Positions 7,156-31,748 of a DNA stretch of 64,000 nucleotides are shown piece by piece. The translations under genes were made by a program, and so were the position numbers. This stretch comes from Octopus vulgaris. Lineage: Eukaryota. The stretch's first letter is position 1; each line of letters begins with the position of its first letter. The stretch covers positions 2,852,001 to 2,916,000 of the forward strand of contig OX597824.1 of the NCBI GenBank assembly GCA_951406725.2, given 5' to 3'. The notes under the pieces were generated by a model, which saw only the letters and a program-made list of their open reading frames with translations, was not told where the DNA came from and did no database searches.

Positions 7156-7204
7156 GTATTGCGTCGCGTGATGCTGGTATTATGCCTTTTAGCAGGGTTG
7201 TGCG
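7156..7204 (-). CDS. PEBP4-like gene copy B, exon 3 (49-nt micro-exon)
   Basis: aatttcag|RTTLLKGIIPASRDAI+C|gtaagt, phase 0-1. Resembles the PEBP4 GADLKKGKIQGQELS segment. Same size and splice sites in copies C and D. Confidence 0.85.
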
Positions 7205-7253
7205 CTGAAATTATAATATATATATATATATATTATGAAATATACTTATGTAT

Positions 7254-7285
<32 letters not shown>

Positions 7286-7429
7286 TGTATGTATGTATGT
7301 ATGTATGTATGTATGTATGTATGTATGCTTTATGCATGCATTTATGTATCTATGTATGTATTAGTAGATTCGTACCTTTTATCCATGTATTCTCAAGCTA
7401 ATAGTTACATATCTAGGCTTGCACATATA

Positions 7430-8406
7430 CAGGTGTAGGACAAAATAGTGGAAACACCTAGCATCATTGCATCATAATTTTGAAATATCTGTTAAACCCC
7501 AAAGACTTCTTTATATTTATGTTTTTTTGTATTTATTATTAGTGTTGCTTAATATTTTTTGCTAAAATTGCTGTTTCTTTTGAGATGTCATCAGAAAAAG
7601 GTAATTGAAATTCATTAAAATGTCAGATGTATCGGACTTTCAAAGAGGCCAAATTGTTGGTGCTCACATGGCAGGCGCTAGCATAACGAAAGCAGCCGAA
7701 ATGTTTGATGTCTCAAAAAGTACTGCCTCGTAAGTAATGACAGCCTTTGAGAAAGAGGAAAAGAACATCCTCGCCGAAACGAAACTCCGGGCGAAAACCA
7801 AATCTTTCAGACTTTATTAATGTTCCGTGAATTGTCAGAATAGCTTTCAAAAGCACAGCTCTTAAAATTACTGCCGAGCTTTATGACCGCCTCGAGAACC
7901 CTGTTTCTACAAAAACCGGATTTCACGCCAGGTCTACAACCAAGAAACCACTACTTTCAAAAACAAATGTTGCAAAGTGTTTAGAGTGGAGTAAAATCCT
8001 ACAGAATTGATCCCTAGAACAGTGGAAGAATGTTACTTTCTCCGACGAATCATCCTTTACCTTATTTCCACCAACCGAGTAGACATGTGGAGACAGCCAA
8101 AATAATCATTTGACCCAAACTGCCATCTTCGAACAGTTAAACATGGAGGAAGATTTCTGATGACCTGGGACGGGACTATATCTTGGAAATCTGCCGGCCT
8201 AATGGTTTCCCTTCAAGTAAAAATTAATACTCAAGACTATTTAAGCATTTTATCTGATCAAATTCATTCTAGTTTCGTGAGGGAAACGCAACTATCAGGA
8301 AGATAATGCATCAATTCACACAGCTAAAGTTGTTACTGAATGACACAATGAACATTCTAGTGAAGTTGAACATCTTATCTGGCCACCACAGTCCCCAGAT
8401 CTCAAT
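7430..8406 (+). mobile_element. Degenerate Tc1-family DNA transposon, 3'-truncated, in intron 2 of copy B
   Basis: TA|CAGGTGTAGGACAAAATA TIR start. Transposase MSDVSDFQRGQIVGA... WKNVTFSDESSF... WPPQSPDLNI with stops and frameshifts. Confidence 0.85.
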
Positions 8407-8434
8407 ATATATATATATATATATATGAGATATA

Positions 8435-8496
<62 letters not shown>

Positions 8497-8511
8497 TGTA
8501 TATATATATAT

Positions 8512-8850
8512 GAGATTGTTGTCAACAGTCACTCCTAGGTCTCTGATATTATCATATGCTGTGAGCGGGTCACCTCTAGAAAGATAATATGGTTGTTTTA
8601 GCATAGTAATTCTTCCAAAGTGCATCAGCTCAGATTATCTCTCGTTTAGTTGCATTTTGTTTTTGTCTGCTCATTGCCGTCCAGCATGTAGATCAGACTG
8701 GAATTCAGTTTGGTCTTCTCCGTTGATAAGTTTATGGAGCTTAGAGTTGTCGGCGAATATTTTCACTTTGCTCTCCGTTATTACGCCTGCAATGTCGTTT
8801 ATATAGACTAGAAACAGAAGCGGGTTCAGGAAACCACTGGTGTTTCTCAA
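8512..8850 (-). mobile_element. CR1-like LINE reverse-transcriptase fragment (paralogous copy 27241-27575)
   Basis: PLLFLVYINDI...VKIFADNSKL (YADD-box variant) and MHFGR...RDLGVTVDNNL. Confidence 0.75.
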
Positions 8851-27944: not shown

Positions 27945-28784
27945 CACCACTCTGATGCATTTTGGAAGAAAGTCTATACTAAAACAGCCATACTCTCTTC
28001 CTTCAGGGGAACCACTCACAGCATCTAACAATATCAGACACCTGGGTGTAATTGTAGATAGCAATCTTAGTTGGAGTGCCCGTATCAACAGTAAGGTCGA
28101 TATAGCGCGTAGGGTGAGCTCCTGAATCCTAACAACCTTCCAGTCCAGAGAACAAGGTGTCATCATTCCACTTTTCTCCTCCCTTGTACGGCCACACATC
28201 GAATACTGCTCCCCTTGTGGTCTCCCCATACAAAACAAAACATCTCGAAAATTAAATCACCCCAGAGGGCATTCACTGAACGTATTAAGGGCGCGATTGA
28301 TCTCGATTACTGGAACTGCCTTAAAGCCTTGAAACTCTACTCTCTCCAGCGCCACTACGAGCGGTACTTTATTTTACGATGTGGAGAATATACCGCCAGC
28401 ATTGCCAAACGACCTGAAGGTCGTTTCAAGGTTCATCCAAGGCTGGGACCACGGGCCATACGTCCCCAGCTCAATTCAGGATCACAATTCAGGTACACTC
28501 TGACATAATTTCTTTGCCTCAACAGGCCCTGCCCTGTTTAACATTGTCCCGAAAGAGATCAAAGAGGAAAAGGATCTCATCACTTTTAAACGGAGTCTGG
28601 ACAGATTTCGTCAAGGAAAACCGGATAAGCCACCCATATATGGATACAACTCACTCAACTAGAACTCATTACTTGAATGGACCATAAACAAAACTTGACT
28701 TAAACAGGATTTAGATAATCCTATCAGGTGGTGCTATTAAAAGTAAGAGATGGCCTGGACCAATCTTTGGTCGAAACATACCTA

Positions 28785-28790
<6 letters not shown>
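27945..28790 (+). mobile_element. CR1-like LINE 3' end (thumb region + 3' UTR stem-loop); short 3'-tail copy at 56258-56385(-)
   Basis: LGVIVDSNLSWS...LVRPHIEYCSPLWSPH...LKLYSLQR, then the 3' hairpin GACCA-ATCTT-TGGTC and a TAAGTTTA tail. Confidence 0.8.
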
Positions 28791-28828
<38 letters not shown>

Positions 28829-28833
<5 letters not shown>

Positions 28834-30986
28834 AAACAAGTCAAAAATAGAAAATGCTAAGATAATTTTATAGTGAATCTTTCAGTACCGGTTTCGGTCA
28901 TTTTGAGACCTTTTCAACTGTAACGATTAAATAATTAAATTTAGAAAAATTAGAAGAAAAGTTTTTTTAAAAGAATATTTCTGTAGTAGTGTTCATATAT
29001 AAGTAGCATTCTGCCTTTCTCTGACTCCCTTGTTTGCACTTGTGTGTTCGAGGTCGTTTTGAGTTCTTGGTAGGATAGGTGAAGAATAATGAGGCTGATG
29101 TGGAGAGGGGCTGGGGAAATCTGGGAATGCCTTAATGGTCGTATTTTGAATGGTCAGTGGCTGACAGTAGTCGCAGTTCAATTCAGGAATTGTTTATGGA
29201 ATTTGCGTAGGCGTTATACTGAAAGACATTAGTGACAAGGTTAAGGGGTGGAAGGTGGAGAAGTAGAAGAAGAAGATGACGATGTTGATGATGATGATGA
29301 TGAAGAAGAAGAAGAAGAAGAAGAAGAAGAAGGAGAAGGAGAAGATGGTGGTGATGATGGTGGTGATGATGATGACGACGATGATGATGATAATAATGAT
29401 GATGATGAAGAAGAAGAAGAAGAAGAAGAAGAAGAAGAAGAAGAAGAAGAAGAAGAAGAAGAAGAAGAAGAAGAAGAAGAAGAAAAAAAACAGAGAAGGG
29501 AGAATATGAATGGGTGTAAGTATAGCTGTGATGGGGCTGATTAGTAATGGATTCTATGGAGTGTAATATTTGTGTGTGTATATATTTCTTTTATTCTAAA
29601 GTTGAGGTATATTAATTGTTTGTCGTAGACCCGTTAAGAAGTGGCTTGTATTTTGTAATAAAGAGATTTTCTTTACTTATTCGTTGTCTCGAGGTTGTAT
29701 CGTCCCTAAATTGGTAGAGGGGGAAAATTCTGAAGTTTGGTGTGTTTTTGTTGGCGCAAATATCTATGTGTTGGCTAAAAGCTATTTTTCTGTTTTGGGG
29801 AATTTTTATCTGGGATCTGTGCAGGGCCATTCGTTTACGCAAACCATTTTTTGTTTGGCCTATGTACTGCTCTTGACACCCGGAGCAGGTTAGTAAGTAT
29901 ATTAGTTTCTCCGAAGCACATGTGAAGTTGCTTTTCACTGTAAACCGTTGTCCTTGTTTGAAGGAGAACTCTGATCCCTCAATTAGATAGTCGCATATCC
30001 CGCAATTGGGTCTTCCACATTTTTTTACTGTCGGCTTCTGTGTTGAAGAGTGAATTCGGGCTTGTGCAAGGAGACTTTTCATGGATCTAGGCTGTCTTTT
30101 GCTTTTTATGATCGTGTGTGTTTGGAGGATTGTGTTCATTCTGTGGTCTTTTTTTAGGAGGGGTATGTTGTGGAGGATGGTGTCGAAGGCTTCGTTATTG
30201 AGAGGGTTGTGTGTGGAGATGTATGGTAAGGCTTTTGGTTTTTCTTTGATTTGGGATGTCTCAGTTCCTTGATGTTAAGTTGAAGGGCACGTTGAATGCA
30301 CTTGTCAATAAGTGAAGGTGGATAGTTCCTGGTGATAAGGGTATCTTTTAGTTCTTGTAGTCGTGTGTCTCTGGTGTTTGCGTTAGAGACTATAGTGCAT
30401 ATCCTTTTTGCTAGATTGAAGGGGATATTCATCCTGGTGTGTCTGGGGTGGCATGAATTGAATGGAATCTATTGCTTAGAGTCTGTAGGCTTATAGTATA
30501 TGTCTGTTTCTATTATATTATTAGCTTTCTTAATGAGGATATCGAGGAAGGGGAGTTGTTGTTGGCTATATTCCATCGTGAATTGGATGTTTACGTCCAG
30601 TCCGTTTAAAATTTTCTGGAATTCTATGAGTTTTTCTATATTTTTATGCCAAAGGATGAAACAGTCATCTAGATATCTCTTCCAGTTGTTTTCTATGTAG
30701 ATGGAGAAAGGGCTGCCATATCTTTCTAGAACCTTACGATACAGACTGATCTCTAGGTATCCTATGACTAGGTTGGCAAAGGAGGGGGCCATTCGTGTAC
30801 CCATCGCAGTCCCCGATTTTTGTCGGTAGAAGTTGTCATTGAAGGCGAAGAAGTTATTTTCCAGGATGAATTTAACCCCTTCTATCACAAATTCTTTTTT
30901 GATGCGGTGTGGTAGTTCGTTGGCGTGATTCTCTAGCCAGATTATAAAATTATCTTAGCATTTTCTATTTTTGACTTGTTTTTTCA
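28829..30986 (-). mobile_element. Penelope-like retroelement, 5'-truncated, RT + GIY-YIG endonuclease, with inverted terminal repeat
   Basis: RT motifs GTAMGT and RYLDDCF (30469-30888); GIY-YIG region LIYLLTC..YIGQT..R..H..E..N (29612-30139). The frame is broken into three pieces. A ~44-bp inverted repeat lies at 28829-28872 / 30943-30986, and the element sits next to (TA)n. Confidence 0.9.
29263..29483. repeat. (GAA)n/(GAT)n triplet repeat inside the Penelope-like element 3' region
   Basis: Directly visible. Confidence 0.9.
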
Positions 30987-31019
30987 TATATATCAACTCG
31001 TGTGTTCCTTTCCACCCTT

Positions 31020-31085
<66 letters not shown>

Positions 31086-31748
31086 TGGACAAGAAGGGAA
31101 AATATCCAGACAGTTAGGTGATACAGAAAAAGGACAACAAAACATCCAGACAGAAGATATAAGGAAAACAAGGACGGAGTTTTCTTTCCTCAGTCGAATT
31201 CCAGATTATCTTTCCAATTTCAGCTGCTTACACTTGAGATCGCTTGAATCTGGCCAGCCCCAAGGAAACATTAAGCCAAGAGCATTAGATACCTTGGGAG
31301 AAAGCAGCGAATGTATCCGAAAACAAGGACGGAAAAAAGAGAGAAATGTTACACAAGTACAAATGCAAATAACAGGATATGACAATAGGTGTCTTTTGAC
31401 TAAGGTCGAATTAAATTAAGCTGGCGATTGTAGAAGTAGAGCCTTACGGTAGGGACATAAGATTGGTGCTAAATTGACAGTTGCATACACGAGTGCACAC
31501 ATATCCATAAAGAGATACATTTAACAAAAGTATCTATCATACTTACACTGATATGTGTCCTCAACCAATGCGGAGACGATATATTAGCTTCCTTCCATTC
31601 GTCTGGACCAAGAATGACCATTATATAACGTTCTTCTTTCAGATTTGCATTTGCCTAATAAAACACAAAAGTTTATTTTTACATTAGGAAGAATTTATTC
31701 TATTAAATTATACATACACACAAGTGAACATATTAGAAATATTGGCAT

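Follow-up and report, generated by a model that had tools for sequence, protein, structure and literature searches.

A tandem cluster of PEBP-like genes in Octopus vulgaris with positively selected mature domains and predicted surface anchors

Why should the exons of neighbouring gene copies differ far more than the introns between them? This question is raised by a 64,000-nucleotide stretch of the Octopus vulgaris genome (assembly GCA_951406725.2, contig OX597824.1; C11:2852001-2916000, hereafter the window). A self-comparison of the window gives repeated exon-sized blocks on the minus strand, which correspond to three genes, here called B, C and D, and to the first exon of a fourth, A. A sequence-only reading of B and C had proposed toxin-like accelerated evolution, with strong positive selection on a PEBP domain. 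We find that the mature domain of these genes was diversified under positive selection, and this result is statistically robust: every test that was run supports it. The likeness to toxins is an evolutionary one only; nothing found points to a toxin, and the conserved C-terminal tail resembles a membrane-anchor signal.

Searches of the 2.80 Gb assembly with exons 1 and 4, together with 190 kb of upstream sequence, showed that the window holds part of a PEBP-fold cluster of nine complete four-exon genes at C11 2.689-2.905 Mb. G1 and G2 lie on the plus strand, and G3, G4, G5, A, B, C and D on the minus strand. A protein search of the 30 kb downstream found no further exon; the gene counts given here, for the cluster and its relatives, are lower bounds. 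In all nine genes the first three exons measure 195, 108 and 49-52 nt and the exon phases are the same, with an exon 4 of 272-293 nt in the intact copies. A partial second copy of exon 4 lies just downstream of that of G4 (C11:2785335-2785608). Between paralogs, 39-76% of the residues of the mature domain are shared, and the intron flanks are about 2-10% different. In the case of gene C, exon 4 (20300-20624, minus, the low end being approximate) has a non-AG acceptor, an in-frame stop at 20583-20581 and a frame that is lost near the end. Gene C is therefore a pseudogene in this assembly.

The counts made earlier between B and C were all reproduced. In exon 2 (B, 9217-9324; C, 31547-31654; both minus), 17 of 36 residues differ. 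In exon 3, the most diverged exon (7156-7204 and 24255-24303, both minus), 10 of 16 residues and 18 of 49 nt differ, and across both exons the codons of all 25 shared residues are nucleotide-identical. The intron-2 stretch used as a neutral yardstick (7361-7500 against 24452-24591, no strand assigned) differs at only 6 of 140 nt (Fisher p = 8e-8 against exon 3), and the wider intron flanks at 45 of 1009 (4.5%). This stretch is found once per gene in six of the nine genes, which makes it a fair yardstick. A scattered transposon was considered as its source and rejected, as there is one copy per gene, at the same place.

The weight that had been given to the absence of silent change did not survive. 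The 25 shared codons hold only about 16 silent sites, so that finding no change at the intron rate (~4%) is unremarkable (P = 0.50). Although the observation holds for these codons, silent differences do occur in 6 of the 89 codons for shared residues once the whole mature domain is counted. The real signal is an excess of amino-acid change, not missing silent change. B and C also make an imperfect pair, C being a pseudogene, but the result holds without C.

For the selection tests, codon models were run with our own Python implementations and not with codeml or HyPhy, using F3x4 codon frequencies, branch lengths taken from M0 and scaled by a factor, six beta classes and naive Bayes site calls. 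The codon alignment comprised 203 of the first 211 columns, eight gappy columns being dropped and the stop of gene C masked. For the nine genes on one tree, the ratio of nonsynonymous (dN) to synonymous (dS) rates, omega, was 1.57 under M0. Twice the log-likelihood difference (2dL) was 98.0 for M2a against M1a, 102.3 for M8 against M7 and 97.9 for M8 against M8a, with about 30% of codons in a selected class of omega 3.9. When recombination was allowed for with per-exon trees, the ratio in the mature domain stayed above 1 and 2dL was 73.4. Allowing double and triple nucleotide changes (multi-hit models) gave 46.7. Leaving out gene C gave 57.4 (34.1 with multi-hit), restriction to the closest five genes 35.3 (23.8), and removal of 39 gap-adjacent columns 50.0 (35.6). 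Omega was 1.74 in the mature domain and 0.45 in signal and tail together (0.36 for the signal, 0.53 for the tail). Signal and tail, which had been described as nearly invariant, are thus under purifying selection.

Counts that need no model showed the same picture. The proportions of nonsynonymous and synonymous differences (pN, pS) were 0.297 and 0.192 over all nine genes (bootstrap P < 0.0005), 0.190 and 0.101 over the closest five, and 0.294 and 0.185 between B and C. A larger paralog set might have brought dS up to dN, but dN was larger in 36 of 36 pairs of the nine genes, these pairs being not independent. Within the closest five, the amino-acid excess did not reach significance in the mature portion of exon 1 (P 0.14). 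As a control, introns were read as codons in six frames, with ratios of 0.68-1.24. When sequences were simulated neutrally on mosaic trees and then analysed with a wrong tree, nine runs gave 2dL values of 0-11.6 and omega of at most 0.82.

It is important to add that gene conversion, named earlier as a possible contributor, is real in this cluster. Per-exon trees fit far better than one tree (log likelihood -3236 against -3464). Exon 3 of G1 is identical to exon 3 of gene D (47206-47254, minus), yet between these two genes exon 2 differs by 21% and exon 4 by 29%. Similarly, G2 and gene C differ by 2% in the mature part of exon 1 (38691-38885, minus, in C), by conversion or crossover, and the other G2 exons group with D. 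Conversion probably accounts for part of the intron similarity between distant paralogs; the selection signal survives the recombination-aware tests.

To describe the selection at the residue level, sites were mapped onto a structure model, as the sequence-only reading had suggested. In 19 columns the posterior was above 0.95. Five of these fall in columns 141-147, in the stretch aligned to the LGRQTVYAPG segment of FT, which we take to be the FT/TFL1 specificity loop. Columns 126 and 129 lie just before a pocket histidine. Columns 32-34 follow the first cysteine, where C and G2 are possibly one codon out of register.

Regarding the fold, two full-length tailed relatives score above the 24-bit cut-off of Pfam PF01161 (P0004, 33.0 bits; P0012, 34.2 bits). 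In an exon-by-exon scan, exons 2 and 4 of gene D (48972-49079 and 42507-42784, both minus) stay below it (16.6 bits, E 0.01; 18.4 bits, E 0.0028), and the exons of gene B, scanned singly, had no Pfam match. P0012, a relative of the C10 type, was modelled from a 14-row alignment of PEBP-like rows only (mean predicted local distance difference test score, pLDDT, 70). The model matched FT, PEBP1 and other PEBP structures with a Foldseek E of 1e-8. Against FT (1wkp), Z was 15.2 with a root-mean-square deviation of 3.1 over 147 residues, the first unrelated row having a Z of 6.5. For this relative, the predicted structure is thus a PEBP beta-sandwich. The ESM Atlas returned PEBP clusters at 0.76 only, which we treat as a lead and no more. 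No toxin family or toxin fold was matched in the Pfam scans and structure searches.

The PEBP pocket is formed by a quintet (D71, D73, H87, H118 and R119 in FT numbering) that is conserved across the family and, according to a family review, disrupted in only two narrow clades (PMC8793217). In the cluster, all five residues are kept in G2, G4 and D, four in C, three in G1, two in G5 and one each in G3, A and B. Accordingly, gene D has D-P-D and HW intact in exon 2 and GAHRY in exon 4, and gene B has H-P-E in place of D-P-D, next to its HW motif in exon 2, and a GxxHF motif followed by a variable loop in exon 4 (4719-5011, minus; stop 4721-4719). In G3, G5, A and B alike, H-x-E replaces D-x-D, and N or S replaces the second histidine. 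These four copies have rewired the conserved PEBP pocket, a histidine being gained on one side of the rim and lost on the other.

A hydrophobic N-terminus, called a signal peptide by inspection, and Cys30/31 with Cys47 are found in all eight intact genes and also in C. In the case of gene A, exon 1 (3237-3431, minus), which carries both features, is the part inside the window, exons 2-4 lying to its left at C11:2845567-2831476. By eye and hydropathy, all eight intact genes end with small residues, followed by a polar spacer and, at the very terminus, a hydrophobic stretch, without a cytosolic tail. The 15-residue mean hydropathy of this tail is 1.5-2.0, compared with 0.3-0.7 in untailed relatives. 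This arrangement is the anatomy of a glycosylphosphatidylinositol (GPI) signal. The eight intact copies, with B and D among them, are therefore predicted to carry a GPI anchor that holds them at the cell surface.

There are also more distant relatives, three on C8 (33.058-33.163 Mb) and one on C10 (95.768-95.778 Mb). One of these four is untailed with a full pocket; three are tailed with degenerate motifs. The untailed C8 gene is the counterpart of an O. bimaculoides record named PEBP4 (P0014), which likewise has no tail and a full pocket. The name PEBP4 rests on one public annotation, and no vertebrate PEBP4 was among the homolog search matches. In a tree of 18 proteins (C omitted, root unresolved), one clade (98/97) unites the tailed genes and another (100/98) the eight genes on C11. 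Close homologs came from Octopus species and Argonauta, then from Mytilus and a crinoid. The libraries are thin for animals, so that these matches do not speak on squid or cuttlefish and the lack of any match to D exon 4 is to be read in this light. A profile of exon 1, run over 1.84 billion representatives, gave 11 matches. The nine looked up were octopod or unnamed; two were repeat-rich and weak.

Four runs, whose contig depth cannot rank expression, were compared with gene B. Two joints, 5011/7156 and 9324/14173, have CT..AC ends; they are present in X4, X7 and X1 and absent from X5, which looks genomic; the second joins exon 2 to the coding part of exon 1 (14173-14367, minus, 195 nt). The junction of exons 2 and 3 of B was not among the joints listed. 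Contigs like G5 show 9 and 39 differences with 21 gap letters, against an expected 7 and 38 with 21. Contigs like G3 have 12 gap letters and begin exon 2 with the two bases peculiar to that copy, and further loose ends match G1 and D exactly. About five paralogs (B, G3, G5, G1 and D) are thus spliced in the same runs, which come from two studies. The run search listed no holder marked as RNA; 15 of 24 rows in it had next to no query words, and it says nothing on tissue restriction. At 14381-14436, G1, G2 and C share a 5' untranslated region (UTR) that is 54 nt shorter, and this short form is seen in X4, X7 and X1.

Public gene models of the cluster are chimeric, two of them joining exons of D to exon 2 of C (P0001, D exon 1 with C exons 2 and 3; P0002, D exons 1 and 2 with C exon 2). 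One Octopus vulgaris protein record fuses D exons 1 and 2, C exon 2 and unrelated sequence, which shows that the cluster is mis-modelled in that gene set. Since the exon phases are common to all paralogs, splicing across genes would stay in frame. An O. sinensis record matches D exon 1 and C exons 2 and 3 with differences at 0 of the 115 residues compared, which places the diversification between paralogs. Intron 3 of all nine genes also contains a conserved short open frame some 850 nt ahead of exon 4 (5846-5929, 21416-21499 and 43573-43650 in the window, minus). The O. sinensis model XP_036362932.1 uses it as its last exon, giving a product without exon 4; this could reflect either an alternative last exon or an error of prediction.

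What could these genes be for? We tentatively favour, at something short of an even chance, that the nine tandem genes form an anchored, co-expressed surface repertoire that binds varied foreign molecules. The ligands would most likely be microbial or parasite surfaces, or their proteases. A soluble PEBP4-like ancestor, of the type kept on C8, would have gained a hydrophobic tail, and one tailed copy would then have multiplied on C11. Signal, tail and beta-core would have kept their job, and copy by copy changes would have arisen at the rim of the pocket and in the loop that follows the fourth core strand. Conversion and unequal crossover would re-sort whole exons and even out the introns; copy C would have died. 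Several observations weigh against such a repertoire. Loops of the model hold no significant excess of selected sites (13/85 against 6/68, p = 0.32), and the fold was modelled on the C10 relative and not on a cluster protein. The hydrophobic tail, read as a GPI signal by eye and hydropathy, might only anchor the protein in the membrane in a simple way, or it might be shed. The identity with O. sinensis, a thin comparison of one record from a close species, fits a burst and subsequent stasis better than a running arms race. Finally, a defence role is deduced from the evolutionary pattern alone.

A bolder version, which we think unlikely, would make the PEBP fold a variable surface recognition system: GPI-anchored and co-expressed, the pocket rebuilt in each copy, and same-phase exons re-sorted by conversion and perhaps spliced across genes, for which the O. 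sinensis joining of D exon 1 to C exon 2 could be cited. The cluster would then be a candidate cephalopod immune or self-recognition family.

Other functions would leave some of the same traces. The proteins could be chemosensory accessory proteins, anchored ligand binders on the sucker or olfactory epithelium that are each tuned to different small molecules. The co-ordinated changes of the pocket rim and the selected columns next to the pocket histidine would fit this, as would the stasis between close species, and a secreted fly PEBP is described in the review as an odorant-binding protein by prediction (PMC8793217). However, the changes are spread over more of the protein than a small-molecule pocket would need, and this function is unlikely too. 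We consider it less likely again that they are recognition proteins of the reproductive tract or of sperm, egg or spermatophore surfaces. Fertilisation typically involves surface proteins that are anchored and evolve fast, and mammalian PEBP4 reportedly appears in seminal-plasma and sperm proteome papers. Proteins that form a species barrier would nevertheless be expected to differ between O. vulgaris and O. sinensis, a weak argument given one record and a close pair. Lower still we would rank components of venom or saliva, released from the anchor or secreted as the product of a shorter splice form. The conserved signal, UTR and introns around a hypervariable mature region would agree with this, and the review lists a gall-wasp PEBP as a putative venom-gland constituent (PMC8793217). 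Against it stand the anchor-like tail, which is under purifying selection in all eight intact copies and predicts a membrane-bound product, and the absence of any matching toxin family or fold. Literature searches, too, found no octopus venom paper that mentions PEBP.

That there was no selection at all, the exons having diverged neutrally long ago and the introns having been evened out by conversion, or the exons being locally hypermutable, is very improbable and largely refuted. Conversion did occur, and adjacent differences cluster in introns as well (odds ratio 3.4-4.0). Over all nine genes, four-fold sites beside changed residues differ by 12.5%, in excess of the roughly 4-10% of introns. 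Conversion thus probably hides some of the age of distant pairs. In the closest five, however, four-fold sites differ by 2.2% (10/464), or 3.7% beside changed residues, and introns by 4.1%, while pN is 19%. Silent exon sites match the introns here, so that no homogenisation is needed in close pairs, and exon hypermutation was rejected on the same numbers. The neutral mosaic simulations and the multi-hit models also leave the signal in place.

How does the cluster compare with known systems? It shares with the PEBP/RKIP/FT-TFL1 family (PF01161) the fold and, in G2, G4 and D, the motifs D-P-D, H-W and G-x-H-R. It departs from that family in its signal peptide, cysteine pair, anchor-like tail and nine tandem copies at 39-76% identity, and in the pocket residues replaced in five intact copies. 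Secreted PEBP4-like proteins (P0014; the Mytilus 'protein D2-like' P0016) have the same core, signal peptide and N-terminal cysteine pair, and one gene of this type, on C8, is closely related to the cluster but untailed. Unlike the cluster genes, they end right after the last strand and have a full pocket; in octopus, the genome yielded this type once. The conotoxin and snake-venom PLA2 families are alike in that a positively selected mature region is combined with a conserved signal, UTR and introns. They have no relation in sequence or fold and lack the conserved anchor-like tail of the cluster, whose link to venom is an analogy only. GPI-anchored Ly6/uPAR clusters and similar families are also tandem and small, with a signal, a GPI tail, a diversifying outer domain and birth and death of copies, but their fold is unrelated. 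To our knowledge, and in the literature searched, no PEBP-fold family serves as such a surface recognition repertoire.

The literature searches turned up no report of a PEBP expansion in octopus; their coverage did not extend to most subscription journals, nor to the supplementary tables of octopus proteomes and transcriptomes, where these loci could be listed by tissue. The sole octopus match was a sea-slug genome paper with an unrelated mention. The cluster is thus apparently undescribed, a variant of a known family. PEBPs are generally conserved and low in copy number, and their pocket, whose true ligand is still debated, is nearly invariant. Nine close paralogs in a near-identical genomic background, with intact and rewired pockets and positive selection, amount to a natural experiment and offer a direct way to test what the pocket does. 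The octopus expansion, mis-modelled in public gene sets, could be a missing surface recognition family for immunity, chemosensation or fertilisation.

Some further elements were seen in the window. Intron 2 of B and C contains decayed transposase remnants at about 7560-8400 and 24660-25600, presumably Tc1/mariner-like. Fragments resembling reverse transcriptase, which we take to come from a retroelement, lie upstream of gene D (exon 1, 52657-52851, minus) at 53300-54500. At 25644-27240, an element of ~530 nt occurs as a tandem pair followed by an inverted copy, these being 93-98% alike.

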